Below are positions 2,856-56,276 of a DNA stretch of 64,000 nt, in pieces. Position 1 is the stretch's first letter, and each line of letters begins with the position of its first letter. The stretch spans positions 77,335 through 141,334 of the forward strand of contig JAZNYV010000186.1 of assembly GCA_045594585.1 (NCBI GenBank), in the 5' to 3' direction. The notes beneath the pieces are model-generated. The model was given only the letters and a program-made list of their open reading frames with translations. It did not search any database and was not told the origin of the DNA. The position numbers and the translations under genes were made by a program. Origin of the DNA: Faecousia sp. (lineage in GTDB: Bacteria > Bacillota > Clostridia > Oscillospirales > Oscillospiraceae).

Positions 2856-3848
2856 ATGGCTAACAAACCAATGACCGGCAAAGTCCGCAGGATCGGCGTC
2901 CTGACCAGCGGCGGAGATGCTCCCGGTATGAATGCGGCAGTTCGTGCTGTCGTCCGTGCAGCCATCTTCCGTGGCATCGAGGTGATCGGCATCCGTCGTG
3001 GATATAACGGTCTGATCAACGGGGATATCCTCCGCCTGGATGAGAAGAGCGTTGCTCACATCATCAATCGTGGAGGCACCCTCCTGTATACAGCCCGCAG
3101 CCGTGAATTTATGACCCCCGAGGGCCAGCAGAAAGCAGTCAACACCTGCAAGCTCCTGGGCTTAGACGGCATCGTTGCCATCGGCGGAGACGGCACCTTC
3201 CGTGGTGCCCAAGCCTTATCCCGTCATGGCATCAGCGTTGTAGGCATTCCTGCTACCATTGACAATGATATTGCCTGCACCAACTACTGCATCGGCTTCG
3301 ACACTGCCGCAAATACCGCAATTGAGTGTATCGACAAGCTCCGTGATACCATGCAATCTCACGAGCGTTGCTCCGTGGTAGAGGTCATGGGACGCAATGC
3401 AGGACATTTGGCCCTCTACGTTGGTTTGGCAGTTGGTGCGACTGCTGTCCTGGTGCCCGAGAGCAAGGAGAGCTTTGAAGAAGAGATCATCGAGAAGATC
3501 CGCAACGCCCGTCTCAACGGCTTCACACATTACATGATCGTTGTGGCAGAAGGTGCCGCATCTGCTCCGGAGGTGGCCCAGAATATCAAGGACACCATCT
3601 GTATCGAGCCACGTGTTACAGTTCTGGGACACATTCAACGTGGTGGCACGCCTACCGCACGGGACCGTGTGACAGCGACCCGAATGGGCTACCGTGCAGT
3701 AGACATCCTCGCTAACGGCGGAACCAATCGCATCGTAGCTCTCCTGGATGGCAAGATGAGCGATATTGATATCGAAGACGGTCTCTCCCGTCATAAGGGC
3801 ATTGATATGGAAGAATGGACCGTACTGGAGGCTATGACCGGCGTTTGA
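2856..3848 (+). CDS. pfkA: ATP-dependent 6-phosphofructokinase
   Basis: IGVLTSGGDAPGMNAA, GGDGT, TIDNDI, EVMGR, LGHIQRGG; start moved to ATG 2856. Confidence 0.96.
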   Translation: MANKPMTGKVRRIGVLTSGGDAPGMNAAVRAVVRAAIFRGIEVIGIRRGYNGLINGDILRLDEKSVAHIINRGGTLLYTARSREFMTPEGQQKAVNTCKLLGLDGIVAIGGDGTFRGAQALSRHGISVVGIPATIDNDIACTNYCIGFDTAANTAIECIDKLRDTMQSHERCSVVEVMGRNAGHLALYVGLAVGATAVLVPESKESFEEEIIEKIRNARLNGFTHYMIVVAEGAASAPEVAQNIKDTICIEPRVTVLGHIQRGGTPTARDRVTATRMGYRAVDILANGGTNRIVALLDGKMSDIDIEDGLSRHKGIDMEEWTVLEAMTGV

Positions 3849-3881
3849 TCCGCTACCAAATCCAATTTCACAAAAAACAAA

Positions 3882-3911
3882 CCCCGTGCCTTGGGGAACC
3901 AAGGTACGGGG
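3882..3911. terminator. Bidirectional intrinsic terminator between pfkA and rplS
   Basis: CCCCGTGCCTTGG-GGAA-CCAAGGTACGGGG hairpin with A/T-rich flanks. Confidence 0.8.
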
Positions 3912-3966
3912 AATTGTTTTGATGGGTGAGATAAATCTTCTCGTGGAATATTCCGAGAGAATGGGA

Positions 3967-4308
3967 TTATACTCTCTCCTTGACCTTTGCAGCCTTGCCG
4001 AGACGATTGCGGAGATAGTACAGCTTTGCACGGCGAACCTTACCGCGACGAACAGTCTCTACCTTCACAATGTTGGGGGAATGGACGGGGAAAACCTTCT
4101 CGCAGCCGACACCGTAGCTCAGACGACGAACAGTAATGGACTCCTCAATGCCGCCATGCTTGCGAGCAATGATAGTGCCCTCGAATGCCTGGATTCTCTC
4201 ACGAGTACCTTCCTTAATCTTGACATGAACACGAACAGTGTCGCCTACGTTCATAGTGGGCAGTTCTTCCTTCATGTACTGGCTGGTCAGAGCCTTCATC
4301 AGATCCAT
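3967..4308 (-). CDS. rplS: 50S ribosomal protein L19
   Basis: [32 protein letters not shown]. Confidence 0.98.
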
Positions 4309-4331
4309 AATAATGTCCTCCTTTTTTATTA

Positions 4332-4373
4332 GGCGTTCATGCCGGTGTTGACCCCACCGCAGAGGACCACCCT
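4332..4373 (-). ncRNA. Probable L19 leader (ribosomal-protein autoregulatory 5' UTR)
   Basis: Minus strand GGTGGTCCTCTGCGGTG-GGGTCAA-CACCGGCATGAACGCC hairpin between promoter and SD of rplS. Confidence 0.55.
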
Positions 4374-4389
4374 TTTAACAGACCATTGG

Positions 4390-4418
4390 ATTATAACACA
4401 TACTTCTCTGAAAATCAA
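4390..4418 (-). promoter_or_regulatory. sigma-A promoter of rplS
   Basis: TTGATT-17 nt-TATAAT with TG extended -10. Confidence 0.75.
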
Positions 4419-4459
4419 GCCCTATTTTACAATTTTTTATAAAATTTTGGTGCAAGGAA

Positions 4460-4606
4460 TCAGTCCATAGGAAGCTCTGCAGGGCAATCTGCAGAGCCGC
4501 TCATAGAAGTTACGGTTTCGTAGAAATCATTGTTGTTCTGGGATGCAGTGATCACATCATCAGTGCTGAAATAAGTGATCTCCATTTCGGGAACGACAAA
4601 CTTCAT
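4460..4606 (-). CDS. Putative RiPP precursor peptide A2, 48 aa: MKFVVPEMEITYFSTDDVITASQNNNDFYETVTSMSGSADCPAELPMD
   Basis: Hand-translated, absent from ORF track; AGGAGG SD upstream of ATG; 30 nt downstream of the rSAM stop; paralog of 6325-6459. Confidence 0.9.
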   Translation of the reverse strand: MKFVVPEMEITYFSTDDVITASQNNNDFYETVTSMSGSADCPAELPMD

Positions 4607-4636
4607 GAGGATTTCCTCCTTTCCGTAAAAATTCTA

Positions 4637-6175
4637 TTAAACAAAATCTGCCATGGCAGATTGGTGTGCACAAGGGAGCGTCCGATCGGGAGAATGCTTT
4701 AAGGGATCATAGTTCAAGCACTTGGCCTCCGGGGAGATCTTAGAGATAAGGTCATGGATCCGATCATGGAAGTTCTCATGATAGAACATACAATTCTCAT
4801 AATCCTTTGACATATAGTCATGGGGATTGGTCTCTAAAGCGTGAGCTCTGCATCCCCCCATACACAGAGAGGCAAATTTACACTGACGGCAGGAAGGATT
4901 GTGAAGGAAGTAATCCTCGCAGGTCACGTCCACCATACCAATATAATTGGGATGGGTCAAGGCGGCAGTCAATCCATCCCTTACATTGGGGAGCTGAATG
5001 CAGGGAGCCTCCTGACTGGCAACATAAAGACAGGGTGTTGCATAGCCGTCAGCAGTAATATATACAACGTTATGAGTAGGAATGCACAGGCAATCACTAC
5101 AGGTCTTATACTGCTTAACAGGCATAATGATATAGTCCTTAGAGCCCGGCTCAAGGGTGGAATAGAAACGATTCAGAACGATCCGAACAGGGCATCCATC
5201 CTCATAGAAGTGAGGCAGATACTCAAAGAACGCATCATACAGCTCCTTAGCCGTAATATTGCAGTCTTGACCGTATTTCTCCCACTCGCCGAAATTGGTC
5301 ATCCGATTGACGATCATGTGCTTGACGCCCACAGAGGCCAGCAGATTGACGCTGTCACGTATCACACCCTTATTGAGCTTATGGATGGTCATAGCACTGC
5401 CGGTATAGAAGCCATGCTTTGCTAAAAGCTCAAATTTATTAAGAAGCATCTTCTCAGCACCGTCGATGCCACGGAGCCAATCATGCCAGCCATCAGTACC
5501 GTCATAGCTCATAAAGATCTTGGGCTTCAATCCCCTATCCTCAAGCTGACCGATAAAACGTTCATTTACCAGCAGACCGTTAGTGGCAATGCCAACAAGC
5601 TGGATATTTCGGGCAGTAAGAGCATCCACGATCTCAAAGAAATCCGGCCGAAGAAGAGGCTCTCCCCCCGTAAGACCAATACGGGAAATGCCTGCAGCAG
5701 CCATTTCATCAATGAGCTTCATGCAATCATCATGGGACATTTCGCCGAATTTAGCATCCGGTGCGGATAAGAAGCAGTGCTTACACTTCATGTTGCAACG
5801 ACCGGTAATAGCCCATTTAGCCGTTGCACGATAGGGTATATTGTACCGCTGCATACTCTGCACAGGAGACAGCTCTTTACCGTAGGGACAGGCCTCCGCT
5901 ACTCCACGCCTAACAAGCTTGAGGACCGCTTTCTTAAGGCTGGGAGTCACAGCAAAATTGTGTATATTGATCTTGCCGTTACAAATCAGTGCCGCTGTTT
6001 GTTCCAGCTCTGTAAGAGGGATCAAGCAGCCCTTCTTTTGATCAAGGACAGAAACATCGATCCCCTGCCACCCACGAAGATAGAAATGGGGCTTTAAAAT
6101 ATAGTATTCTGCAGCCTTCTTCTCAGCCTCGGTTTCGGCAGCAGAAAAAAGAGTCAATTGCTCAACAAAATCCAA
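4637..6175 (-). CDS. Radical SAM/SPASM peptide maturase with probable N-terminal RRE
   Basis: CNMKCKHC (CxxxCxxC), TGGEPLL; SPASM cysteines CSDCLC...GYATPC...CRQCKFASLCMGGCRAHA...C; ~110-aa N-terminal extension; TTG start with GGAGG SD. Confidence 0.9.
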   Translation of the reverse strand: MDFVEQLTLFSAAETEAEKKAAEYYILKPHFYLRGWQGIDVSVLDQKKGCLIPLTELEQTAALICNGKINIHNFAVTPSLKKAVLKLVRRGVAEACPYGKELSPVQSMQRYNIPYRATAKWAITGRCNMKCKHCFLSAPDAKFGEMSHDDCMKLIDEMAAAGISRIGLTGGEPLLRPDFFEIVDALTARNIQLVGIATNGLLVNERFIGQLEDRGLKPKIFMSYDGTDGWHDWLRGIDGAEKMLLNKFELLAKHGFYTGSAMTIHKLNKGVIRDSVNLLASVGVKHMIVNRMTNFGEWEKYGQDCNITAKELYDAFFEYLPHFYEDGCPVRIVLNRFYSTLEPGSKDYIIMPVKQYKTCSDCLCIPTHNVVYITADGYATPCLYVASQEAPCIQLPNVRDGLTAALTHPNYIGMVDVTCEDYFLHNPSCRQCKFASLCMGGCRAHALETNPHDYMSKDYENCMFYHENFHDRIHDLISKISPEAKCLNYDPLKHSPDRTLPCAHQSAMADFV

Positions 6176-6324
6176 AGTAATACCTCCAGTTCGGAAATAA
6201 CTGTCTTTTCCAAATGCTAACAGATAGTTTAGAATTTGGAAAAAGCAGCTATAATTTGGAAAGTGGCCCGTTGCAAAATCGAAGATCCTACAACGGGCCG
6301 TTGCCTGTCTAATCTACATTAGAT

Positions 6325-6459
6325 TTAGTCCATGGGCAGTTCTGCGGGGCAGTCAGCCTGATACATGGAGGTGGTGGTCTCATCGGTTTCCTGGGAAGCG
6401 GTGAGAATGTCCTCGGTGCTGAACAGCTTGATTTCCATCTCGGGAGCTACGAACTTCAT
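6325..6459 (-). CDS. Putative RiPP precursor peptide A1, 44 aa: MKFVAPEMEIKLFSTEDILTASQETDETTTSMYQADCPAELPMD
   Basis: Hand-translated, absent from ORF track; AAAGGAGG SD; paralog of 4460-4606. Confidence 0.9.
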   Translation of the reverse strand: MKFVAPEMEIKLFSTEDILTASQETDETTTSMYQADCPAELPMD

Positions 6460-6521
6460 TATTGTGTCCTCCTTTCTTCGAAGAATAGACAAACACTGCA
6501 TTCAGTGAATGTTACAAAGAA

Positions 6522-9500
6522 TTAGTTAAAGTATGCAAGAGCGGTATCGGAGTAAGCAATCATTGCCTTGCAGACATCCAGCAGGGCACCGGTCTTGCCG
6601 TTGCCGTAGGTGTCAACGCTGTAAGTAGAGGTGGTGGAAACACGGGTGTCACCATTATATACAACAGTATTCATAACAGCACGGAGCTCAGCAGCCAGCA
6701 GGCTGTCAAAGCTAAATGCATAGTAGCCCATAGCTTCGTTATATACCTCTGCATTATTAACAGTAACGGTAACAGTCTCACCCTTGTAGTTAACGTAGGT
6801 GATCTTAGCACTCAGATCCTCAACATTAATGGAGGGATCGGTAACGGTGAATACGAACTTAACCTCAACCTTGGAGTCCAGGTTCAGAACACGGCCCATC
6901 CACTTGATGGAGGGATTCTCGAAGTCGCCCAAATCAGCCTTGTTGTTGTTGAAGGTCACGCCTTCCATATCGCTGAGGTATGCCTTCATAGCATCGGTCA
7001 TATTAGCATTAACCAGTGCATCGGTACGGTAGGCCTTGAAGATCTGAGCATAGGAGCCGTAACGGAGCAGGTCAGCACACAGTGCCTTCAGTTCAGCGGA
7101 GGCAGCTGTCTTGTTGAGCTGAGAATAAGCATAGGTGCCTACGCTGTAGGTGTCGAGGGTGGACATATAGATCTCTTCACCCTTGACCATGTAGAGGCGA
7201 GCCTCGATGATGTCGTTCATCTGAACAGCGGTGATGCCCTTCAGAGTGAAGTAATAGAACATATCGACAGGAGTAGCCTCAACAGTCACCGTGTAAGAAC
7301 CGGTCTTCTCGTTGCCGCTATAGGTAGGAACAACTGCCTCAACATAGAAGCGGTCATAGCCTGCAACAACAGTCTGCAGAACAGCATAGCTGATGGAAAT
7401 ATCGCTGGCCAGGTTCAGAGTATGATTCAGACGAACATCGGGCAGCTCAACGGGTTCGGTGGAGGGTTCCTCAGCACCGCAAACAGAGCAAACACCGTCT
7501 ACGTACTCGCAATCACCGGTAGTAGCTTCGCCACAGTTGCCGCAGGTGGTGGTATGAGTGCCATCGCCATTGGGAGCAGTGGTATTTGCATGGCCCAGAG
7601 CGGGAATGACTTCCTGAGCAACAGTGATCTCACCGCAGTCAGCACACTTGGCACCCTCGGTCAGACCGGTCTCGGTGCAGGTAGCAGCAACAGCTTCCAA
7701 AACGGTGATATTGGTATGAGCACAGGGTTCCTCGCCAGGAACCATAACAACATCGGCAGCATCCCGGATCAGGAGCTGATAGCCGTTGTAAGTGGAAACA
7801 ACAGCGGTAACATTTACGGTAGCACCAACAACGCAATCCTCAGTAAGAGCAGGAGCCTTGTAGATGATGATGGTAGTGCCATTCTGTTCCAGAGTGACGG
7901 AACCGTTAGTAGCGATCTCGGTGATGACAGCCTTCTCAATGAAGACCTTTTCGCCAAGATACTCGTTGGCGGTATCAGCAGCCAGCGTAGCCAGATCAAC
8001 GATCTGAACCTCTACTGCGTGACCGGTAGACAGAACGAAGTATTCCTTGGGGAGGTTCAGCTCGATCAGACCCTTATAGGTGGTCATAGTGGAGCTGACG
8101 AAGATCTCGTCGCCCAGGTTGATGTCGGAGGTATCGAAGTCGTATGCGAAGTATACGCACAGACCGGCATCCTCATCCTGGATGTAGACATTACGTCCGC
8201 TTGCGTAGGTGACGATGCCCTTAATGTTGTATACAACAGTGCTATCGGTGTAGGCCTTAGCCTCTGCGATGGTGTTAAGAGCCAGCTCCTCGGACTCGCC
8301 GCAGTTTGCACAGACAGTCTTAATGGTGCCCTCAACAACAGTAACAGCCTTGTCATGGCCGGTTGCGGGAATGACCTCGCCACCGCTGATGACCTCGCCG
8401 CAGTCCTCGCACTTGACGCCGGCAGCGTTGCCGTCGGTGGTGCAGGTTGCTTCTACAGCGGCGATCTCAGAGGTATTGGTATGCTGACATTCGGGAGCAA
8501 CTTCGCCCTTAGCATCAGCAAAGATGTACAGACCGGTGTAAATGGCACCGCTCTTGTAGCCGCGGATAGCGGAAGATGCAGTGGTAGAGTTCTGAGAAAT
8601 GACGACATTGCCTCCGTCATAAGCAGAGGACAGAGCGAAGCCGCCGTCAGAATCGGCAACTACAGTCCACAGAGTGGTAGCATAGTCCTCGGCAAAGGCA
8701 AGCTTTCTGTTAGCAGAAATGCCGGTGTAGCCAAGATACTTGGTAACGCCGTCAGCCTCGAAGCTGATGGTAAAGCCATCGGTATTGTTGCCCTTGAAAG
8801 TGAATACCTGTGCATCCTCGGGGAGGTCATCACTGGTAATGACGTCTTCTACAGCAACAACTGCAGTGGAGGAAACGCCCCAGTCAGCGTTGGAGCCGGT
8901 AGTCAGCTTGGAGGTAGCGGGATAAACAGTGGGATACTCACCGCCCAGAACAGCAGTGATCACATAGTTGCCCTCTACGATGGTCTCCAGATCGATAAGG
9001 CTGTAGTTTACAGTCTCGCCCTTGGCAGCACCGCAAACGGAGCAGGTGCCATCAACGAAGTCGTGACCGGTAGCAGGGATAGCCCCTTCCTTAGTGGAGC
9101 CGCAGACGGTACAGGTGAAGGTAATAACGCCGTCCTCGGTGCAGGTAGCGGCAGTAGTAACGACACCCTCGTCATTGGTGTGACCGGTGGCAGGGATCTC
9201 TGCTTCCCAGGTAAAACCGCACTCTGCATTGGAGCAGGTGAACTTCTCAACACCGGCCTCGGTGCAGGTAGCGGGGGTGATAACCTCGGAGGTAGCCTCA
9301 GTATGGGTGCAAACATCACCCTCGGTCAGCTTAAACAGAGCAATGCCTGCCTGGTTGGAGGTATATGCACAAAATCTGGGGCTGCTGCTGTTGTACTGCA
9401 GCTTTCTTTCCTTTTCGCCGTCAAGCTTGACGCAAACCAGGGAAGCCTTGCCGTTCTCGTCAACAGAGTAGATCCAAGAAGCAGCTTCTCCCACGGCTTC

Positions 9501-9851
9501 CATAGCCTTGATGGTGTTGCCGGAGCTCCAGCCGATATACATGCCGTCAGCCATCTTCAGAGCAATACTGCCTTCGGTAGCACCTGCCTCGACAGTAAGC
9601 TGAGCAGCTTCGGCAGAGACGAGAACGTCTCCGTTGGGGGTAGCATCAGCACGGGAACCGATATTGTTGGAGGTAATCTCGGTAAATACGCTGGTGCCAT
9701 CGGGATTTGCCATGATAACGATATCACCGGCAGCAACGCTGTCAGCACGGACGTAGGTGCCCTCTGCAGCGGATGCGGTGACGGCGATGCCTGCGAACAC
9801 AGATGCAATCATTGCGATCGCAAGAATCATGCTGAGGATTCTTTTCTTCAT
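6522..9851 (-). CDS. Large secreted/surface protein (1109 aa): signal peptide, beta-rich modules, Cys-rich ATCTExG/CxxCG repeats, OB-fold-like pair, conserved ~310-aa C-terminal module
   Basis: Sec signal MKKRILSMILAIAMIASVFAGIAVTASA; OB-like TIAEAK...IKGIVT...NVYIQDEDAG...GDEI...YKGLIEL; C-terminus homologous to 56277-59891 and 45090-50153. Confidence 0.8.
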   Translation of the reverse strand: MKKRILSMILAIAMIASVFAGIAVTASAAEGTYVRADSVAAGDIVIMANPDGTSVFTEITSNNIGSRADATPNGDVLVSAEAAQLTVEAGATEGSIALKMADGMYIGWSSGNTIKAMEAVGEAASWIYSVDENGKASLVCVKLDGEKERKLQYNSSSPRFCAYTSNQAGIALFKLTEGDVCTHTEATSEVITPATCTEAGVEKFTCSNAECGFTWEAEIPATGHTNDEGVVTTAATCTEDGVITFTCTVCGSTKEGAIPATGHDFVDGTCSVCGAAKGETVNYSLIDLETIVEGNYVITAVLGGEYPTVYPATSKLTTGSNADWGVSSTAVVAVEDVITSDDLPEDAQVFTFKGNNTDGFTISFEADGVTKYLGYTGISANRKLAFAEDYATTLWTVVADSDGGFALSSAYDGGNVVISQNSTTASSAIRGYKSGAIYTGLYIFADAKGEVAPECQHTNTSEIAAVEATCTTDGNAAGVKCEDCGEVISGGEVIPATGHDKAVTVVEGTIKTVCANCGESEELALNTIAEAKAYTDSTVVYNIKGIVTYASGRNVYIQDEDAGLCVYFAYDFDTSDINLGDEIFVSSTMTTYKGLIELNLPKEYFVLSTGHAVEVQIVDLATLAADTANEYLGEKVFIEKAVITEIATNGSVTLEQNGTTIIIYKAPALTEDCVVGATVNVTAVVSTYNGYQLLIRDAADVVMVPGEEPCAHTNITVLEAVAATCTETGLTEGAKCADCGEITVAQEVIPALGHANTTAPNGDGTHTTTCGNCGEATTGDCEYVDGVCSVCGAEEPSTEPVELPDVRLNHTLNLASDISISYAVLQTVVAGYDRFYVEAVVPTYSGNEKTGSYTVTVEATPVDMFYYFTLKGITAVQMNDIIEARLYMVKGEEIYMSTLDTYSVGTYAYSQLNKTAASAELKALCADLLRYGSYAQIFKAYRTDALVNANMTDAMKAYLSDMEGVTFNNNKADLGDFENPSIKWMGRVLNLDSKVEVKFVFTVTDPSINVEDLSAKITYVNYKGETVTVTVNNAEVYNEAMGYYAFSFDSLLAAELRAVMNTVVYNGDTRVSTTSTYSVDTYGNGKTGALLDVCKAMIAYSDTALAYFN

Positions 9852-10116: not shown

Positions 10117-11049
10117 TCATGTATTGTAACAAAATCGACATCTTTGTTGCCGTTTTGCTGTATTTATCAGATGCTTTAGGCCGTCGAGTCCCTGGGAAAG
10201 GGCTTGTCTCCGTTCCACATCGCTCATATTAGGCAGAGAGCCGATAGGTTCGATGTTCATAACACCACGGAACCGAATGTCCTTCAGTGCAGACAGGACG
10301 GAGGCCCAGGGGATGTTCCCCTCTCCCGGGAACAAGTGCAGATCGGAGAAGCCGCTCTCCGTAAAGCCGTAGTTATCATTCAGATGGACCGTTGCCAGAT
10401 CGGATCGGAAGGCTCTGATCATCGCAGGAATGTCCTGCCCTGCATTATTAGCGTGACCCGTGTCCAGGCACAGCCGGATCCGGTCACTGGCAAGATCGTG
10501 GAGCAGCTCCATCATATCCTCTGCGGTAGTATAGGGATGAGGAGGATCTCCCGGCTTCTGCAAGCGGTGGGAATCAAAGGTGTTCTCCAGATTGATGTAC
10601 ACGTCATACTTCTCTGCGGCAGGGATCAGCTCATGGAACCATCTGACGTTCCAATCGTGGATCCGCCCTCGGACCGACAAGTTGTCCACCCGTTCTCTGA
10701 GCCGTACAGGATGGAATATGATATGCTTGCATCCCAGGATGGACGCAGCCTCAAGGGTGCGGAAATAGAGCTCTCCCGGAGGTACATAGGTAAAGTCTGA
10801 GGGTATATCCTGCAGCCATGCAGCATGGCTCTGGACAAAGTCTAAGCCCAGCTCCTCCCCACGGCGGCGGACGGTCTTGATCCAGCTCTTCCAATCCTCC
10901 CGGAGCAAGGGAGGACAATAGCCGACGCTGTATACGCTGAAGGGGAAATCCAGTCCTTGATATCCCGCCTCTCTTACAAGTGCCATAGCTGTAAACAGGT
11001 CTGTCTTGCTGCAAAAGCTGGCAATAGCACTGCTGAACTGATGCTCCAT
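10117..11049 (-). CDS. Sugar phosphate isomerase/epimerase (xylose isomerase-like TIM barrel)
   Basis: AGYQGLD, QSHA, INLEN, CLDTGHAN, VHLNDN, HLFPGEGNIPW, MNIE metal-binding motifs. Confidence 0.85.
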   Translation of the reverse strand: MEHQFSSAIASFCSKTDLFTAMALVREAGYQGLDFPFSVYSVGYCPPLLREDWKSWIKTVRRRGEELGLDFVQSHAAWLQDIPSDFTYVPPGELYFRTLEAASILGCKHIIFHPVRLRERVDNLSVRGRIHDWNVRWFHELIPAAEKYDVYINLENTFDSHRLQKPGDPPHPYTTAEDMMELLHDLASDRIRLCLDTGHANNAGQDIPAMIRAFRSDLATVHLNDNYGFTESGFSDLHLFPGEGNIPWASVLSALKDIRFRGVMNIEPIGSLPNMSDVERRQALSQGLDGLKHLINTAKRQQRCRFCYNT

Positions 11050-11173: not shown

Positions 11174-11989
11174 GTGTTCATGATGAAATCCCTCGTCTCC
11201 TTGAAGAGTCGTCTCAGACAGCTATCGAAATATCCTATCAGCCTGTATGCAGCCAACGCTACTTTCTATATGATCCTGTCCGTTTTTCCTACGATCATGC
11301 TGATGGCCGCCCTTCTGCCTACCCTCGGCATCAGCTCCGAGGAACTGCTGAAGAGCATGGAGGGTATCATACCCGATCTCCTCTATCCCCTGTTCCGAAG
11401 GGTATTGCAGGATATGGAGGGCACGACCACAGGGGTCCTTCTTTCCACTACTGCGGCAGTAGCTCTATGGTCTGCCTCTAAGGGTGTATATTGCATCGCC
11501 CAAGGCTTAAACGGGATCTACGGACTGCGAGAGAGCAGATCCTATATCCACAACAGAATCACCAGTATGCTGTACACGGTCCTGCTGATCCTGTCCCTTC
11601 TTCTGACCCTTGTGGTCAACGGCTTCGGCAGAGAGCTGGTCAGCTATTTATCCACAAGATCCGTGCCGATACTAAGGATCCTGGCCGCACTGCTGCAAAT
11701 GCGAGGCGTGATCCTTGGGGTCGTCCTTACGGCTGTATTTACGGCAATGTATTGGGTATTCCCCAACAGGAAGCAGAGTCTCCCCTTCATCCTCCCCGGT
11801 GCGGCCTTGGCGGCACTGAGCTGGCTGATATTCACAAGAGGCTATTCCCTGTATGCCAGAGTCTCCGGCTCCTACTCTCTGCTGTACGGTAGTCTGTCCA
11901 TCATTGCTATGGGCATGATATGGCTGTATATCTGTATCTCCATCTTATTCTACGGCTGTGTATTAAATATCTGTTTAGAGAGAAGGTAA
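11174..11989 (+). CDS. YihY/virulence factor BrkB family membrane protein
   Basis: YAANATFYMILSVFP, LWSASKG...GLN.IY, PGA, YGSLS...MIWLY. Confidence 0.88.
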   Translation: MFMMKSLVSLKSRLRQLSKYPISLYAANATFYMILSVFPTIMLMAALLPTLGISSEELLKSMEGIIPDLLYPLFRRVLQDMEGTTTGVLLSTTAAVALWSASKGVYCIAQGLNGIYGLRESRSYIHNRITSMLYTVLLILSLLLTLVVNGFGRELVSYLSTRSVPILRILAALLQMRGVILGVVLTAVFTAMYWVFPNRKQSLPFILPGAALAALSWLIFTRGYSLYARVSGSYSLLYGSLSIIAMGMIWLYICISILFYGCVLNICLERR

Positions 11990-30730: not shown

Positions 30731-30768
30731 AGGAAATGCACAAGGAAGAACTTCCCTGTGCATTTCCT
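30731..30768 (+). terminator. Terminator after ABC transporter
   Basis: AGGAAATGCACAAGGAAG-AA-CTTCCCTGTGCATTTCCT then T-rich tail. Confidence 0.75.
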
Positions 30769-30778
30769 GTTAATTTTC

Positions 30779-30807
30779 TTGACTTTAGTTGTGCAATACC
30801 GTATAAT
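30779..30807 (+). promoter_or_regulatory. sigma-A promoter of the YcaO gene
   Basis: TTGACT-17 nt-TATAAT. Confidence 0.75.
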
Positions 30808-30838
30808 TCTACCCAAAGGCCCTCAAAGGAGAAAGTAT

Positions 30839-32626
30839 ATGATCATTGATGAAAGATTTAAGGATGCCAAGCCCGGTGATACCATTGCTCGTATCAAGGA
30901 GATATTGGAGCAATTGGATATTCATCTTGTAGAGGATTGGATCGACACCGGGATCGAGCACTGCTACGGTCTCCACGTTCACGGAGACAAGGGCTTTCCC
31001 TACGCCAACGGCAAGGGCGTGACCCCCGATCTGGCCCGTGGGAGTGCTTACGGCGAGTTTATCGAGAGACTACAGAGCGGACTCTTCTTCTACAAGTACC
31101 AATCTCTTGAGAATGACCCTGAGCTACTGCTCCACACCTATGCCCCGGATGCAGAATATCTGACCAAGGAGGAGCTCCTGGCAGACAGCCAATGGATGGA
31201 GCCTATTGTAGCCGCCTACGGTGTGACCAAAGAGGCCCTTGCAGATCAGTGCGAGATGTACGCCGGCGGCAAGAGGATCCTTGTGCTCCCCTATTACGAT
31301 TACTTCGGCGACCGATATGTTAAGCTTCCTGCAGGCTTCGTAGAGCATCTGTATTCCGCTAACGGCTGCTGTGTGGGTAACACCCGTGAAGAAGCATGGA
31401 TCCATGCCCTTTCCGAGATCATGGAGCGTCACTGCTGTATCCGTCTGATCAAGGAGGATCTTTCTGTCCCAGTGATCCCCGAGGACAGCCTGCGGAAATA
31501 CCCTGTAGTATCTCAGATCCTGGATAAGATCCGCAGTGAGGGCGAGTTCGACGTAGATGTGGTAGACTGCTCCCTGGACACCGGCTACCCCGTTGTAGCC
31601 ACACGGATCATTCACAAGGGGACCCACCGATATATCGTCAGCATCGGTGCCGATCCTATTCCCGAGATCGCCATACAGCGGACTCTCACCGAGGCCTTCC
31701 AGGGGCGGACCCTGGCACGGCTCCATCTAACGGGCAACAGCAGGCTCCTGAGTCACGCCTCAGACATTGATATCTGTAACAACGTCCTTAATCAATTAGA
31801 GACCGCTCAAGGTGCCATGAACGTTGCCTTCTTCACCCCTACAGACGCTCCCTGTGCCCAATTCCCGGATCACAGCAGCTTGACGAACCGTGAGCTGGTT
31901 CATATCGTTCTGGATTACTTTAAGAGCAAAGGTCTTCCCGTATATATCCGCAACTACTCCTTCCTGGGCTTCCATTGCTACAAATTCGTCGTTCCCGGCT
32001 TCTCCGAGTCCCGTGGTCTGCGGATCCCGCAGAAGACACAGCAGTACGCTATGGGCGAGCTGGCTTCCCTGGCACTGCGGAATATGCGTCGGGCAGATGA
32101 CTTGGGTATGAATGACGTCCTGTTCCACCACAAGATGATCCGTGGCGTCAACTCCAGAGAATACTACTACCCCTTCCTGGCAGGTCTGCCCCTGGCCCAC
32201 GGGGATCATAATGTTTCCGCTGCGGTACACTACGCCTACGCCGCATGGAGACTCAAGAATTACACCGAAGCACTGTCCCATCTGAATACCGCTGTTGCCT
32301 ACTGTCGAGACGAAGACAAGAGAGATTATTTGGACTGCATCCGTCAGTATATCCGCTATACCAAGGACGGACTCCCTGCCTCACAGATCAAGCAGGTCCT
32401 GAGTCGTTTCTTCCTCCCCCATCACCTTTTGAGGTTGGAGGACAGCCTTGCACAGCACGGAGATTGCTTCTCCGATCTCCTTATGGCTTGTCAGCTTCCC
32501 CATTGTGATACCTGCCCCCACAGGGATATCTGCTATTACGAGGAATCCAAGCGGGTCATCCGCAATGCGGGCCTATGCTACAGAGACTTTACCCACGGAC
32601 AAGAGCGAGAAATGTTCCGAGTATAA
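30839..32626 (+). CDS. YcaO-like family protein with C-terminal TPR-like/Cys-rich extension
   Basis: NGKGVT...A..SAYGEFIERL, SANGCCVGNT.EEA..HALSEIMERH, RTLTEAFQG, VVPGFSE; start ATG 30839 after AAGGAG. Confidence 0.88.
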   Translation: MIIDERFKDAKPGDTIARIKEILEQLDIHLVEDWIDTGIEHCYGLHVHGDKGFPYANGKGVTPDLARGSAYGEFIERLQSGLFFYKYQSLENDPELLLHTYAPDAEYLTKEELLADSQWMEPIVAAYGVTKEALADQCEMYAGGKRILVLPYYDYFGDRYVKLPAGFVEHLYSANGCCVGNTREEAWIHALSEIMERHCCIRLIKEDLSVPVIPEDSLRKYPVVSQILDKIRSEGEFDVDVVDCSLDTGYPVVATRIIHKGTHRYIVSIGADPIPEIAIQRTLTEAFQGRTLARLHLTGNSRLLSHASDIDICNNVLNQLETAQGAMNVAFFTPTDAPCAQFPDHSSLTNRELVHIVLDYFKSKGLPVYIRNYSFLGFHCYKFVVPGFSESRGLRIPQKTQQYAMGELASLALRNMRRADDLGMNDVLFHHKMIRGVNSREYYYPFLAGLPLAHGDHNVSAAVHYAYAAWRLKNYTEALSHLNTAVAYCRDEDKRDYLDCIRQYIRYTKDGLPASQIKQVLSRFFLPHHLLRLEDSLAQHGDCFSDLLMACQLPHCDTCPHRDICYYEESKRVIRNAGLCYRDFTHGQEREMFRV

Positions 32627-45089: not shown

Positions 45090-48000
45090 CTATTTGGTAA
45101 AATAAATGTTAGCTGCCTGATTATACAGGAACAACGCCGCCACACAATCCTGAACCGTAGGTCCATGGATGCCGTTTGCGTTGATGCGGACAGAGGCACA
45201 GTAGGACATGGGAGAATAGGAAATCTCGCTGCTTTCCTGCCCGTCAAAGATCGTGATGGTAGCGTACTCGTCCAGGTCCTTGGCAGAAATGTTCTCAATA
45301 TCCACATAATACAGACCGGACGTAAACATCACCGGCAGCTCTTCCCCATTATGGGTAACCGTAAGGCCTTCCGGGGATGCATCCATTCTCATAAAGAGCC
45401 GGAGTGTCGTCTCGGATTTCAGAAGCAGAGAGGCTCCTGCGAATCGGACGAGACTTGTGCCCTGATCCTTATTGATGGGGAAGCCCTCAATACTTACGGA
45501 GCTATAGTCCGGTGTCTCCAGACCTTCATTGGCAAGTCGCTCCGTATGATAGCCGAAGTGGATCTGAGATGCCGCACCATAGTTGAGCATGGCATGGATC
45601 AGATTCCGAAGGGGCTCTTCGATGTTGTTTGCCAGCATCCGATCTCCGTAAGTCTTAACGGAATAGGTATATTCCTCCGTAGACCTCTCGCCATAGAAGA
45701 ACTGTCCTATGATGGTATCCGTCATTTCCCTGGCAGCTACCTCACAGGTAAATACGTAGTAGGTATGTCCCAGGAATTGGGTCTCTACACCTTCGTATGC
45801 AGGGATCTTGAGCTGTTCTTCATTTTCCAGGGTAAAGAGCATATACGCACTCTCATCCCTGTAGATCTCCTCTGTAAGGCTCATATAGAACTTCACTGCA
45901 ATATTGCCCTCCAGACTCAGTGTGCGGAAGCTAAGGACCGCCTCCTCCACTTGCACATTACAGCGATCACAGAAATTATCCTTGGGAAATTCGTCTGTAT
46001 GCTCCTTCACAGGAAGGACCTGCTGGGCTGTGAGGACAGCATTACAGACGGAGCAATGCTTACCCTCGGTGAGGCCTGTTTCCGTACAGGTGGCTGCAAC
46101 TGCCTTATCTATGACCTCGGTATGTCCCTTAGCAGGAACAGTCTGCTGGGCTGTGAGGACAGCATTACATACGGAGCAATGCTTACCCTCGGTGAGGCCT
46201 GTTTCGGTACAAGTAGCCGCAACTGCCTTGTCTATGACCTCGGTATGTCCCTTGGCTGCTACAACAGTATCTTGGTAGGAGTCAGAGCAACGGGAACAGG
46301 TATGGGTGGTGTAGCCCTGTGCGGTACAGGTGGGAGACGTAACCTTGGTGGTATAGCTGTGTCCCAGTGCCCCGGTGGTAGCCGTGAAGCTAAAGGTGCC
46401 GTAGGTCGTGGTATTCCACTTATAGCTGTCAGTGCCCGTTGCGGTGCAGGTGGCTGCCTTGGTCACGGTCTTGGTATAATCCGTGGTATTCAGCTTAGGC
46501 AGGGTCACGGTGGTAGTCCCGGAGCACTTGGAGCAGGTTCCTGTCAAGGTGCCTGTTGCAGAGATGGTGGGGTTCTTGGTGGCCTTATAGCTATAGCTGT
46601 GAGCTTCATTCCTGCTGTAACCACAAGAGCAGGAGGCCTTATGATAGGTCGTATCCACCTTACCATAGGTAAAGCTGTGAGCTGTTGCAGTATAGGTAGC
46701 AGTAATGGTGGTATCGGCAGTAATGTTGGTCAAAGCCTTGTCCCATCCCTTAAAGCTATAGTGATTGGTTGCATCGGAAGCCTTGGTGGGAGTTTCACCT
46801 GTATAGGTAGCCGCCTCCCCTTTGTTGACAAGCTGTGTGGCAAGGGTCTTCCCTGCTCCGTCCTTAAAGGTGACCGTATAGGCTGGAGTCGGAAGATCTG
46901 CCAAGGTTCCTACATAGATATAGTCAATGGTCACCTTGCCCAAATTAGCGGAATCACTGCTCTTGATATTCATAAATCGAACACCGAAGGATGTAATCTT
47001 AGCCGCATTTTTAAATGTTGAGCTAAGAGGAGCTGTAATGACCTGATAGGATCCTGTCTTAAAAGTAAAGGCTGTATTCAGATCCCCATACTTAATAGCA
47101 TCTACGCCCTTGGCATTGTCGTAGTGGTACTCCAACTGAATGGTATTACTGCCGGTAGATACCACGCCGTCCAGCTTAAAGCGGATCTGGAAATATTGAG
47201 CCTTTGAGGGCACGTAGCTCAAAGGGGCATATCCCGGACGGCCGTTCCAAGGGAATACGCCGTAGGTGGTAGAGGTCATGAATTTGGGACCGGGCTCCTT
47301 TTCCCCTTCCAGATCATCTCCCACCTTGACAATGGCCGTCCCGGATGCATTATCAATGGTAAAGTTGGTGTAGTTTGTGGATTCTCCCTGTGCTGTTGCA
47401 TTGGTAGCCCAGAAGGCCTCTGTAGGGCGGTCATAATTCTGATATCCGTAGCTGTGGCTGTTATATCTGTCAACAGCGGCTTCCGTATTATCAAAATGGA
47501 AAAGCAAATTATCCGTCTCGGGACGAGAGTCCATAGGCCCAACGTACACATAGTCAATGGAAATAGAGGCATTTTTCCCGGGAGCGGAATTGATGGAGTT
47601 CACAAAGGGACGGATCGCCGTGATCATTTCCGCTTCCTCATAGTAGGTGGAGTCCATGGTAAACAGCAGAGTGAAGTACCCTTTGTTAACCACCTTGGTC
47701 AGGTCGAATTCCATGGAATCATTGCGGCTTTCTCCGGGCTCCATTCCACCGTAGCCAAAGAAGAGGTGGAAGGAAGCAGTCTTACCGTCGGATTTGGTAG
47801 AGATCGCATTGTCGATCCGCAGACGAACCTGGCAATAATCCTTTTCCCCGGGGTAAAAACGCAAGGGATAGTTGGCCGTGTTGTTATTGGGGCAGGATTG
47901 GATATAGTGATATTTGGTCGTATCCGCGGACAAGACCGTAAAGTGGATCGCTCCCTCGGAGATGCTGGGTGCAGTGGTGCGGGTGTTAGGATACCACCAG

Positions 48001-50153
48001 TTGGATGCAAGATCGAAATTCATTCCCCCATAAGGACGGGTCTGATACCGCTGCTGATCCACATTTTGATTATCGAAACCGAAATACAAATGATTCTGCT
48101 CCGGCATGAAGGTCCGGGGGCCTACGTAGATATAGTCAAAGGTGATCTTGGCCTGTTGATCCTGGGCATTCTGGATCTGATTGATAAAGGCTCGGAGAGA
48201 AGTGACCTTTCCTGTCCAATTGGCATCCATGGGAATGGTATAGGTCACAAAGTCCTTATCGGATACATCCGCTGTCTTAAATGCCACACGGACGGATCTG
48301 TTGCTGATATTATCGCCATCTATACCATAGAAGAGAATAAACTCACTATAGCCATTGGTCTTAGAGGATACTGCATGATCCAGCTTAAACCGAACCTGAC
48401 ACACATCCTCCGGGCCGGCAGTAAAGCTAAGAGGATGAGACTCCCATGCAGTGCCTGTCTCGATGTAGTGATAGGTGGTGGTGTTGCCGGCTGCGACGGT
48501 AATACTGATGTTACTGTCGGAAATGACGGGAGCAGAGGTCCTTCCCTCGGGAGCATACCAGCTCTCTGCTAAGTCATAGTTCACATTGCCGTAGCTCTTA
48601 TTCTTATACCGTGCTTGGGCTGCAGCAGTGTTATCAAAGTCAAAATACAGATACCCTGCATCACGTATAAAGGTAAAATAATCCAGATTTGCAAGGTTGG
48701 TGCTTGCTGTTCCCGTAGCCTTTACAAACAGCTTATGCTCGCCGGGCAGAACAGTTTTGCTGAGGTTGATGGTCTTGGCCCCTACAGCGGAATCTGCCGC
48801 AAGAGTGTAGGTGCCGATCAAATTACTGCTGCTGATGGAATCAATATAGAACAGCAGCTTTGCACCCTTCAAAAGTCCCCGAACACCGATTTTTAGCTGG
48901 TATTCATCACCGTTAAAGTAAACATTGCGATATTCCAGCCATTCTTCATTGCGGAGGTTATTTACGACTTTATTCATAGAAGAATTCGCTTCTAAGGGCA
49001 GGGAAAAGTTGGCATTTACAGAGCTCATATTATGGAAGTGCTCTGCCTGTATGGTCTCGTTAGAGGCTCTCTGCCGATTATAGTCGTACAAATAGGCAGA
49101 AAGCTCACTGGCTCGGTCGTTCATAATACCGTCAAAGCCGATACCCAGCATATAGGCCCAAGTCTTTTCGCTATCGGGTCTGCCACCGCTCCAGCCGCCG
49201 GTAGAAATGGTAGAACCATAGAGAGAAATGTTATTCTTGTCACAGAAGGCATCAAAGGACTCAGTAATCAGTGCTTCGTAGGCCGCCGCATTGGTAGCGT
49301 TATAGGTGACCTCGACCGCCTTCAGATAAGTACCGTTGTCCAAATGTGTCTGGAGAGTTGCCTCGTCGGGCTTGCCCATTACGTGCATATGGAGGATAGT
49401 ATTCTTAACATCTGCCTGGGTAATGGTGTCATTGGGGTAGGCTGCGTTCCAGACGTTTGCCGCAGCAGTGGCCCAGGTGTTAATGGTGCTTGCCCCCTTA
49501 GAGATCTTGAAGAATGCATTGTTCAGCATTCCCTTCTCACGCAGGACCTTGTAGCAAGCTGTAAATACAGCCTGAGAGCTGCACTTGTCAATGGTGATCA
49601 GGGTCTTGGGGCCGTACATTTTTACCAGATCCAGGCAATCGTCGAAACGAGCCACATAGACCTTGCCCCCCGAAGCAGCAGTACTGCCGTAGTGAGACTG
49701 ATAGCCAGGCAGGGAGTTCAGGATCTTTGCCTGGGCAGCCGTCATGGTGTAGGCGGTGGTGTTGGAGCTCCCACCCTGTTCTGCCCGGAGTGCCATTGTC
49801 TTAAGCTGAGACCAGTTGTAATCCGCCACATTTCCTGTGGAGCCAACCACTGTGCGATCAATGGTAGTATCATGGAAAAGGGTTAGCACTCCATCCTTAC
49901 TGAGCATAACGTCGATCTCAATGCCATCTATGCCCATAGCAATGGAGTGATAGATAGCAGGGAGTGAGTTCTCCGGTGCCAGCTTCCATGCAGCACGGTG
50001 GGTAAAGGATACAGGGATCTCTCTTTGGACCTTGCTAATGGCATCCTGAGCACCGTATGTAGGTGCAGGATAGGCCGCTGTTACAGGACCGACCTGCAGC
50101 AGAAGCATCAAGGTCAGGATCGCAACGAACATACGCTTCAAACATTTTCTCAT
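45090..50153 (-). CDS. Secreted multimodular glycerophosphodiester phosphodiesterase (GDPD + CBM6-like + 3 repeated ~190-aa modules + Cys repeats + shared C-terminal module), 1687 aa
   Basis: Signal peptide; HRA....PENS......A.G.D.IEIDV..SKDG..TLFHD.TIDRT; IQAEHF / LRNEEWLEY; repeats described under findings. Confidence 0.82.
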   Translation of the reverse strand: MRKCLKRMFVAILTLMLLLQVGPVTAAYPAPTYGAQDAISKVQREIPVSFTHRAAWKLAPENSLPAIYHSIAMGIDGIEIDVMLSKDGVLTLFHDTTIDRTVVGSTGNVADYNWSQLKTMALRAEQGGSSNTTAYTMTAAQAKILNSLPGYQSHYGSTAASGGKVYVARFDDCLDLVKMYGPKTLITIDKCSSQAVFTACYKVLREKGMLNNAFFKISKGASTINTWATAAANVWNAAYPNDTITQADVKNTILHMHVMGKPDEATLQTHLDNGTYLKAVEVTYNATNAAAYEALITESFDAFCDKNNISLYGSTISTGGWSGGRPDSEKTWAYMLGIGFDGIMNDRASELSAYLYDYNRQRASNETIQAEHFHNMSSVNANFSLPLEANSSMNKVVNNLRNEEWLEYRNVYFNGDEYQLKIGVRGLLKGAKLLFYIDSISSSNLIGTYTLAADSAVGAKTINLSKTVLPGEHKLFVKATGTASTNLANLDYFTFIRDAGYLYFDFDNTAAAQARYKNKSYGNVNYDLAESWYAPEGRTSAPVISDSNISITVAAGNTTTYHYIETGTAWESHPLSFTAGPEDVCQVRFKLDHAVSSKTNGYSEFILFYGIDGDNISNRSVRVAFKTADVSDKDFVTYTIPMDANWTGKVTSLRAFINQIQNAQDQQAKITFDYIYVGPRTFMPEQNHLYFGFDNQNVDQQRYQTRPYGGMNFDLASNWWYPNTRTTAPSISEGAIHFTVLSADTTKYHYIQSCPNNNTANYPLRFYPGEKDYCQVRLRIDNAISTKSDGKTASFHLFFGYGGMEPGESRNDSMEFDLTKVVNKGYFTLLFTMDSTYYEEAEMITAIRPFVNSINSAPGKNASISIDYVYVGPMDSRPETDNLLFHFDNTEAAVDRYNSHSYGYQNYDRPTEAFWATNATAQGESTNYTNFTIDNASGTAIVKVGDDLEGEKEPGPKFMTSTTYGVFPWNGRPGYAPLSYVPSKAQYFQIRFKLDGVVSTGSNTIQLEYHYDNAKGVDAIKYGDLNTAFTFKTGSYQVITAPLSSTFKNAAKITSFGVRFMNIKSSDSANLGKVTIDYIYVGTLADLPTPAYTVTFKDGAGKTLATQLVNKGEAATYTGETPTKASDATNHYSFKGWDKALTNITADTTITATYTATAHSFTYGKVDTTYHKASCSCGYSRNEAHSYSYKATKNPTISATGTLTGTCSKCSGTTTVTLPKLNTTDYTKTVTKAATCTATGTDSYKWNTTTYGTFSFTATTGALGHSYTTKVTSPTCTAQGYTTHTCSRCSDSYQDTVVAAKGHTEVIDKAVAATCTETGLTEGKHCSVCNAVLTAQQTVPAKGHTEVIDKAVAATCTETGLTEGKHCSVCNAVLTAQQVLPVKEHTDEFPKDNFCDRCNVQVEEAVLSFRTLSLEGNIAVKFYMSLTEEIYRDESAYMLFTLENEEQLKIPAYEGVETQFLGHTYYVFTCEVAAREMTDTIIGQFFYGERSTEEYTYSVKTYGDRMLANNIEEPLRNLIHAMLNYGAASQIHFGYHTERLANEGLETPDYSSVSIEGFPINKDQGTSLVRFAGASLLLKSETTLRLFMRMDASPEGLTVTHNGEELPVMFTSGLYYVDIENISAKDLDEYATITIFDGQESSEISYSPMSYCASVRINANGIHGPTVQDCVAALFLYNQAANIYFTK
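46020..46256 (-). repeat. 123-bp tandem duplication (41-aa Cys-rich repeat AKGHTEVIDKAVAATCTETGLTEGKHCSVCNAVLTAQQ) inside the GDPD gene
   Basis: Near-identical copies starting at 46020 and 46143. Confidence 0.9.
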
Positions 50154-56264: not shown

Positions 56265-56276
56265 AGGAGAATGACA

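Follow-up and report, generated by a model that had tools for sequence, protein, structure and literature searches.

We analysed a stretch of 64,000 nucleotides from Faecousia sp. (contig JAZNYV010000186.1, positions 77,335 to 141,334; hereafter the window), in which a gene for a radical S-adenosylmethionine (rSAM) enzyme with a SPASM region is flanked by two short open reading frames (ORFs), A1 and A2. In our assessment A1 and A2 are probably precursors of an uncharacterised, rSAM-modified peptide of the class made on the ribosome and altered after translation (RiPP), with docking of the leader on a RiPP recognition element (RRE) and a thioether from the core Cys to the acidic residue three positions later (+3) as the likeliest course of maturation. 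The three genes lie on the minus strand of 4460-6459 in the order A1, rSAM/SPASM gene, A2. The closest record in our scan of species genomes is a metagenome-assembled genome of Faecousia sp. (Oscillospiraceae) with an enzyme 90% identical to that of the window. The features concerned are listed below.

6325-6459, minus strand: putative precursor peptide A1, 44 amino acids (ORF, AGGAGG site, orthologues, and a ratio of nonsynonymous to synonymous change, pN/pS, of 0.1-0.3)
4460-4606, minus strand: putative precursor peptide A2, 48 amino acids (ORF, AGGAGG site, orthologues)
4637-6175, minus strand: radical SAM/SPASM enzyme, the putative maturase, 512 amino acids, TTG start (PF04055, AlphaFold2 (AF2) model, PDB matches)
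5774-5797, minus strand: CX3CX2C motif for the rSAM [4Fe-4S] cluster, C127, C131 and C134 (invariant in 90 homologues)
4790-5086, minus strand: SPASM region for two auxiliary Fe-S clusters, C364, C382, C429, C432, C438, C442 and C462 (invariant in 90 homologues)
5828-6175, minus strand: N-terminal domain of the enzyme, residues 1-116, a probable RRE (fold model and weak structural matches)

A1 begins with an ATG at 6459 and ends with a stop codon at 6325-6327, and A2 runs from an ATG at 4606 to a stop codon at 4460-4462; each is preceded by an AGGAGG motif (6468-6473 and 4615-4620, respectively) located 8 nucleotides before the ATG. The translations are MKFVAPEMEIKLFSTEDILTASQETDETTTSMYQADCPAELPMD for A1 and MKFVVPEMEITYFSTDDVITASQNNNDFYETVTSMSGSADCPAELPMD for A2. 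The TTG start of the enzyme gene follows a GGAGG motif at 6183-6187 with a gap of 7 nucleotides. A mechanical ORF list gives A1 as a longer frame of 58 amino acids from an upstream ATG at 6501; we placed the start at 6459, because all homologues begin at MKF. A preliminary description of this DNA had reported two short same-strand ORFs with AGGAGG sites on either side of the rSAM gene, a CxxxCxxC motif together with a full SPASM Cys pattern, and no adjacent protease or transporter gene. The coordinates, strand, translations and Shine-Dalgarno sites were confirmed, C127/C131/C134 and the seven SPASM Cys proved invariant in the alignment of 90 homologues, and no protease or transporter gene was found within about 4 kb, the gene for a YihY-type membrane protein being located 4.7 kb upstream. 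The same description had suggested looking for purifying selection on the peptides and for their co-occurrence with the enzyme, and both were found, as detailed in the following.

In A1, residues 1-22 form the leader (MKFVAPEMEIKLFSTEDILTAS); they are followed by a variable spacer rich in Thr and Glu and, at the C-terminal end, by the conserved core DCPAELPMD, which is identical in A2. A2 is an old paralogue of A1 that forms a distinct conserved subtype (…ITYFST.DVITAS…MSGSADCPAELPMD). Every Faecousia-type locus has an A1 orthologue upstream of the rSAM gene, and A2 orthologues lie downstream of it in L001, L002 and L082 (loci are cited by their L numbers). The leader and core are under purifying selection, with a pN/pS of ~0.28 overall for leader and core codons across Faecousia-type loci and a range of about 0.1-0.3. 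Between A1 and A2 the ratio was 0.16 (pN 0.12; synonymous sites near saturation, pS 0.74), and between A2 and its L001 orthologue pN was 0.042 and pS 0.643. Apart from these, a decayed A2-type copy that has lost the CPAELPMD core, MQFVASKVEVLMFAATAVLTASFGILTDQSLVGVLCFLSFL, was observed at L003:5568-5693.

Enzyme and peptide co-evolve. A scan of one genome per species, covering 185,579 species, yielded 501 enzyme relatives, and the best 80 loci of these were examined. All ten loci with an enzyme of at least 39.7% identity (L001-L009 and L020) carry same-leader peptides on the same strand, located upstream of the enzyme gene and in some cases downstream of it too, with one to three precursor paralogues per locus. 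The remaining 70 of the 80 loci (35-40% identity) contain no A1/A2-type peptides, and other peptides or none were recognised there. When 84 enzymes were placed in a neighbour-joining tree, the peptide-linked ones all fell into one exclusive clade (14/14). A profile search found ~148 peptide clusters in public data, all of which are unnamed or annotated as 'hypothetical protein'. As the ORFs recur beside every close homologue of the enzyme, show low pN/pS values and are represented by these clusters, A1 and A2 are genuine genes and not chance ORFs.

Alignments of the peptide family gave the leader consensus MKF..PE.E...F..EDILTAS, and F3, P6, F13, D17, T20, S22 and one Cys are invariant or nearly so. 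After the leader comes a spacer of variable length in which Thr, Ser, Glu and Asp abound. The region after the leader was examined in 120 peptide clusters: it contains a Cys in 118 of them and exactly one Cys in 97, in 98 the distance from the last Cys to the C-terminus is 7-8 residues, and 116 of the 118 Cys-containing clusters have the motif C-x-x-[D/E]. Lys and Arg together account for less than 1% of the post-leader residues, and Asp and Glu for 23%. The C-terminal motif is CPAELP[ML]D in Faecousia and CGTDTG, CPTD, CPNDT or CDTETP in remoter clades, so that the sole core features conserved across all sub-clades are the Cys and, at +3, the acidic residue.

The rSAM domain of the enzyme was recognised by PF04055 with 68.8 bits (cut-off 29.5, E 8e-19), and the Pfam SPASM model PF13186 scored 17.2 bits, under its cut-off of 21.5. 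The SPASM Cys are spaced as C364, G377-x4-C382, C429-x2-C432-x5-C438-x3-C442 and C462. An AF2 model of the enzyme reached a mean predicted local distance difference test (pLDDT) score of 90.2, and the nearest solved structures were SkfB, SuiB, PqqE, CteB (5why), ChlB, TigE and the anaerobic sulfatase-maturating enzyme (anSME). On this modelled fold, the closest relatives are thus RiPP maturases or SPASM enzymes with several chemistries. In NCBIfam the enzyme remained under every cut-off; the top model was NirJ with 98.8 bits against a cut-off of 515, the StsB, SkfB, AlbA, MftC, ScmE/F, WgkB and PqqE models scored 60-80 bits each, and over the enzyme and its relatives ScmE and ScmF gave about 80-96 bits.

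Residues 1-116 of the enzyme are predicted to form a domain of strands plus helices, which folds alone with a pLDDT of 90.6. Its top PDB matches were leader-bound lasso B1 proteins (TbiB1 and 6jx3), the N-terminus of SuiB, TigE and LynD, at E-values of 0.17-1.1. Based on the model, this domain is likely an RRE. Residues 1-23 add two helices that are present only in the peptide-linked clade and absent from the sister clade. Within the same domain, Cys96 (~5888-5890, minus strand), in the motif G-I-x-E-x-C-x-x-G, is conserved in at least 90% of the 90 homologues, in the peptide-linked clade and the sister clade alike. At the other end of the gene, a terminator-like hairpin with a T-run at 4645-4662 (minus strand) covers the last codons of the enzyme, just before the ribosome-binding site of A2; the 23-residue C-terminal tail of the enzyme encoded over this hairpin is shared only by the closest homologues and has a pLDDT below 50.

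The course of maturation that we propose would begin with translation of A1 and A2, each from its own strong ribosome-binding site, and a hairpin after A1 would restrict read-through into the enzyme gene, leaving precursor message in excess of enzyme message. The 22-residue leader would dock on the RRE-like N-terminal domain and present the C-terminal core to the active site, where the rSAM/SPASM core would modify the C-terminal D-C-P-A-E-L-P-M-D. The likeliest reaction would be the formation of a small intramolecular thioether ring from Cys37 to Glu40 (A1 numbering; Asp in relatives), similar to that made by PapB, with C-x-x-D/E in place of C-x3-D. PapB forms thioethers between Cys and the side chains of Asp or Glu and accepts C-Xn-D with n = 0-6 (PMC9413430). 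The Cys37-Glu40 thioether is our best guess since conservation across all clades is confined to the Cys and, at +3, the acidic residue, and since PapB joins Cys to Asp or Glu. Cleavage of the leader and export of the product would, we infer, follow. The product sequence is strongly acidic, the locus has no linked protease, immunity gene or dedicated ABC exporter, and its chromosomal position is kept across Faecousia species and, beside yihY, in remoter relatives. For these reasons we expect a signalling or physiological peptide like SCIFF rather than a cationic bacteriocin.

Several observations weigh against this interpretation. The best NCBIfam scores of the enzyme fall on NirJ, AhbD, MftC, SkfB and ScmE/F types, all far under cut-off, and as the enzyme is distant from every thioether synthase, the chemistry is not transferable by homology. 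The structural matches behind the RRE assignment are weak (E 0.17 or worse) and its support from sequence is nil: comparison of residues 1-116 with stand-alone PqqD by hhalign gave a probability of 1%, and a profile of these residues had no match at E ≤ 10 among PDB sequences. Two of the 118 Cys-containing clusters lack C-x-x-D/E, and many members of the wider leader superfamily described below are devoid of Cys. At the locus, neither a leader peptidase nor an exporter could be named. Among sequencing runs, no RNA run contains the locus, and no transcript, peptide or modified product was observed; in four DNA runs, at most 0.12 of the sampled words of the locus were present.

The system is of the known type in which an rSAM/SPASM enzyme acts with a leader-bearing precursor, and it stands outside the SCIFF, PapB, SkfB, PqqE, MftC and lasso families, because the defining cut-offs or components of these were not found. 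As in freyrasin, an rSAM/SPASM enzyme is paired with a leader-bearing peptide whose core Cys is followed by an acidic residue a few positions on. However, a single C-x-x-D/E stands here in place of the six C-x3-D motifs of PapA, the leaders differ, the thioether is a conjecture in the present case, and the PapB model NF047865 (cut-off 340) is not among the best 25 NCBIfam matches of the enzyme; with the sister-clade homologue P0062 (38% identical) it scored 49.5 bits. The SCIFF/CteB system, conserved in Clostridia, is a minimal combination of a precursor with an rSAM/SPASM enzyme that has an N-terminal RRE, and it lacks a dedicated protease and exporter. The structural matches of the window enzyme include CteB (5why), but the peptides here mostly have one Cys instead of six, do not match the SCIFF model and occur as one to three paralogous precursors per locus, and TIGR03974 is absent from the best 25 NCBIfam matches, which are all far under cut-off. 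SkfB is the best solved match both by sequence (E 3e-17) and by fold (E 1.8e-17), and it makes a thioether at a single Cys of a short peptide. Its identity to the enzyme is nevertheless only ~18%, TIGR04403 gave 68.6 bits against a cut-off of 300, and in place of the full seven-Cys SPASM region of the window enzyme, SkfB carries a Twitch domain, which has one auxiliary cluster.

The leader resembles lasso peptide leaders in its layout, aromatic-x-x-P-x-[LMI]-E … T-A-S, of which F3-x-x-P6-x-M8 and T20 are near-invariant here and correspond to the lasso pattern of Y-x-x-P-x-L with a Thr close to the cleavage site. The canonical spacing from the lasso P motif to the Thr is two residues shorter than in the A1/A2 leader. 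Lasso leaders of rumen Firmicutes, such as MKAWNTPVIETLEINETAA|GG, have a comparable layout, aromatic-x-x-P-x-[LIVM]-E … T-A-x (PMC7533575). The N-terminal domain of the enzyme is in turn most similar to leader-bound B1 proteins (weakly, at E 0.17-1.1). We propose docking of the leader on this domain because of the lasso-type layout and because PqqD-like RREs bind such leaders. Unlike in lasso systems, the maturase here is a radical SAM enzyme, and neither a lasso cyclase (the Asn-synthetase-like C protein) nor the transglutaminase-like B2 protease was called in any examined locus. Likeness to the SynChlorMet system, which to our knowledge is uncharacterised, lies in the ScmE/ScmF models being among the better NCBIfam matches and in other superfamily peptides adjoining ScmC and PqqD genes; the scores are, however, far under the 400-bit cut-offs, and both ScmC and a stand-alone PqqD are missing from the window. 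The enzyme also differs from PqqE of the pyrroloquinoline quinone (PQQ) pathway and MftC of mycofactocin in being under their cut-offs, with no PqqB/C/D or MftB/D/E/F accessory genes within 5 kb.

Two hairpins are predicted in the region between A1 and the enzyme gene, which has a folding z-score of -6.6.

6265-6299, minus strand: GC-rich hairpin of 16 bp, about 25 nucleotides past the A1 stop codon (folding z-score, covariation)
6200-6249, minus strand: second long hairpin just upstream of the ribosome-binding site of the rSAM gene (predicted fold)

A GC-rich hairpin is found 15-30 nucleotides past the stop codon of the upstream precursor in every locus examined, and its sequence differs between clades. 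Across the 11 Faecousia copies of the 6265-6299 hairpin, compensatory changes were scored in 4 of the 16 pairs and only 1 of 176 cells was broken. Most copies are without a U-tract. This hairpin probably terminates or attenuates transcription in part, or stabilises the 3' end of the transcript; an excess of precursor mRNA over enzyme mRNA by means of such a hairpin is known from other RiPP operons. At the position of the second hairpin, one was also predicted in L001, L002, L003, L005 and L082. Rfam gave no match in 3800-7000.

Upstream of A1 lie a secreted protein gene and, further on, yihY, and downstream of the locus is rplS, which has its own promoter-like site.

6522-9851, minus strand: secreted multi-domain protein of 1109 amino acids, ending 62 nucleotides before A1 (recurrent C-terminal domain)
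6525-7511, within this gene: its C-terminal domain of about 330 amino acids, residues ~781-1109 (homology across loci)
10117-11049: AP-endonuclease-2-family gene, between the secreted protein gene and yihY
11174-11989, plus strand: YihY/BrkB-family inner-membrane protein, divergent (TIGR00765, 96.8 bits against a cut-off of 73.15)

A gene for a protein with this C-terminal domain ends 18-120 nucleotides ahead of the same-strand peptide gene in all eight Faecousia-type loci, in L093 and L113, with their 372-residue rSAM enzyme, and in L091, L095 and L097; this was also the case in 9 of the 21 independent peptide loci found by scanning metagenomes with a DNA pattern. These proteins are homologous to one another over their C-terminal 200-330 residues (E 1e-8 to 1e-15), and the domain has no family in Pfam or NCBIfam. 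The window encodes three such proteins, at 6522-9851 (minus strand), 45090-50153 (minus strand) and 56271-59891 (plus strand), in which the domain ends with …AYSDTALAYF or …LYNQAANIYF; the domain is thus multi-copy, and the latter two genes are not followed by a peptide gene. No tandem repeats were found in the secreted-protein gene. In L091, the upstream protein of 211 amino acids showed no significant direct similarity to the window protein; it matches the C-terminus of the L097 protein at E 5e-8. As far as sequence allows, the secreted protein is a possible member of the module. In L006, L009, L020, L081, L089 and L090 (enzymes 40-46% identical), the yihY gene lies divergently right beside the peptide gene. 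It also occurs in L082, L093 and the window, separated from the peptide by inserted genes; the distance of 4.7 kb in the window is due to two such genes. In the 70 sister-clade loci, no yihY gene was present in the 4 kb on either side. YihY is possibly an exporter or accessory protein, or merely a case of old synteny, and the links to both neighbours may be functional or only syntenic.

The leader extends to a much larger superfamily. A search of 1.84 billion representative proteins with the peptide profile (E ≤ 0.001, clusters at 50% identity) returned 1,246 clusters. The best 134 hits new to the set are, with one exception, short (29-70 amino acids) and have the N-terminal 22-25 residues in common; their acidic C-terminal parts are very diverse, and many lack Cys. 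None of 97 sampled members had a Pfam or NCBIfam match. Superfamily peptides were found in the following contexts, in which they are paired with at least four different maturase sets.

Fused-domain rSAM/SPASM enzyme: the window and its relatives
rSAM enzyme of 452 amino acids with stand-alone PqqD: L083-85, L103, L119
rSAM enzymes of 351-372 amino acids without an N-terminal domain: L093, L099, L113
ScmC, PqqD, S26-like peptidase, ABC transporter and PF14907 nucleotidyltransferase: L091, L095, L097
Orphan peptide with no maturase nearby: L092

A variant peptide with the A1 core, MEKYIRAEMEVVKFDVEDVITTS…DCPAELPMD (L083:5533-5661), lies between the 452-residue rSAM gene and the gene of an 85-residue stand-alone PqqD. 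That rSAM enzyme is unrelated to the window enzyme, and its nearest types, TIGR04463, CefB, Clo7bot and PapB, are Cys-directed maturases. As a variant with the A1 core adjoins an unrelated rSAM enzyme, the same peptide family is apparently served by non-orthologous rSAMs, and by analogy the context fits a link of the family to RRE-dependent, Cys-directed maturases. A YcaO protein beside this P0210-type cluster of L083 was considered as a component and rejected, since the 44%-identical copy in the window, at 30845-32617, is far from the peptides. The window copy (30758-32626, plus strand), whose nearest family is the S12-methylthiotransferase-associated YcaO, is probably a housekeeping gene unrelated to the peptides. 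In the ScmC set (L091:6170-10375, L095:5194-10117 and L097:5239-9267), Cys-less superfamily peptides are followed by ScmC (PF27840), PqqD, a peptidase and an ABC transporter; the peptidase has 125-139 amino acids and is signal-peptidase-I-like, and the PF14907 nucleotidyltransferase occurs in L091 and L095. This cluster resembles one of lasso type without a cyclase. A reading that joins all these elements, in which a large superfamily with lasso-type leaders in gut and rumen Clostridia is read by the RREs of at least four unrelated maturase sets, its peptides are partners of surface proteins or are exported by YihY, and the crosslink at C-x-x-E is new, is unlikely to be correct in full.

The preliminary description had regarded the system as a new rSAM-RiPP family, with peptides unlike those of SCIFF, freyrasin, mycofactocin or PQQ. 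The latter point agrees with the comparisons above, in which the cut-offs or components of these families were not found, and the former is supported by co-occurrence, by purifying selection and by the lack of any curated or published description. The arrangement of one rSAM enzyme and two peptides is indeed present, but the system proved to be wider than described, comprising a leader superfamily of ~1,250 clusters, several maturase sets and recurrent neighbours. A1 and A2 had no NCBIfam or Pfam match (NCBIfam at E ≤ 1). In 8.3 million full texts, CPAELP, EDILTAS, KPILNLVKF and FVAPEME were absent save for unrelated papers on mammalian TFEB/TFE3, and the literature on ranthipeptides, Nif11 and PqqD held no description of the A1/A2 peptide family. 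Neither the peptide nor the enzyme clade is described by a Pfam or NCBIfam model, a paper or a source name.

The enzyme could modify the same RiPP precursors by another chemistry: sactionine formation as by SkfB or AlbA, C-C or C-O crosslinking as by PqqE or SuiB, epimerisation, or Cys oxidation as by anSME. The nearest solved relatives (SkfB, SuiB, PqqE, CteB and anSME) span all these reactions, and the similarity to NCBIfam models is evenly spread across many functional types. An aromatic residue is often found four positions before the Cys in A1-type peptides; it is, however, absent from A2-type peptides and many intermediates, and the only positions conserved in all sub-clades are the Cys and, at +3, the acidic residue. 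The peptides also lack C-x-P/A-x-R, the motif targeted by anSME, and we consider another chemistry rather unlikely. It is very improbable that the peptide instead gives rise to a redox cofactor or small molecule within the cell, as PqqA does to PQQ and MftA to mycofactocin. The locus has no linked tailoring gene such as one for a peptidase or dehydrogenase, MftC and PqqE scored 74.7 and 61.2 bits against cut-offs of 265 and 381, respectively, and the one to three precursor paralogues per locus have variable spacers, even though the conserved core at the extreme C-terminus, the lack of an exporter or immunity gene, the conserved chromosomal position amid housekeeping genes and the presence of MftC- and PqqE-type models among the NCBIfam matches would suit such a cofactor.

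The recurrent neighbour raises the question of whether the functional unit consists of the upstream secreted protein and a modified peptide that acts with or on its C-terminal domain, in anchoring, folding or sensing, rather than of a free product. The homologous domain does end 18-120 nucleotides upstream of the peptide gene in several maturase settings. Yet it is multi-copy, two of the three such proteins of the window have no peptide gene after them, it is absent beside the peptide in L006, L009, L020, L081 and L089 (enzymes 40-46% identical), and a mechanistic precedent is lacking, which makes this unit quite improbable. That the short ORFs are regulatory leader peptides of the rSAM gene, acting as upstream ORFs in attenuation and not as substrates, is hardly credible: the order of small ORF, strong hairpin and enzyme gene is attenuator-like, but the amino-acid sequence and not the RNA alone is conserved at both ends (pN/pS 0.1-0.3), tandem copies and copies downstream of the enzyme gene exist, and the peptide family also pairs with unrelated maturases and stand-alone PqqD proteins.

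Uncharacterised rSAM-RiPP families are a frequent yield of genome mining. If the enzyme modifies A1 and A2, the rSAM RiPPs would gain a precursor family and a maturase clade, both new, from abundant uncultured gut Oscillospiraceae, possibly with a new type of ring, a four-residue Cys-Glu macrocycle. Given the size of the leader family, the lack of a model for it in Pfam and NCBIfam and its pairing with several enzyme sets, the leader could serve, much as the Nif11 and NHLP leaders do, as a useful handle when anaerobes are mined for RiPPs. The YihY and secreted-protein neighbours could offer a first functional clue to both uncharacterised families, and peptides that are modified partners of surface proteins or are exported by YihY would constitute a new functional class.

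A different set of peptides was observed in the sister clade (L010-L080). Apart from the generic Nif11 leader model, no NCBIfam cut-off was reached by its peptides and enzymes. Many of the enzymes are accompanied by one to four tandem Cys-rich peptides with Nif11 or GG leaders (for example L033:5489-6094 and L045:5448-6301), which contain repeated C-x-C-x-x-G-G-G-G motifs and are often located near ABC-transporter sequences.

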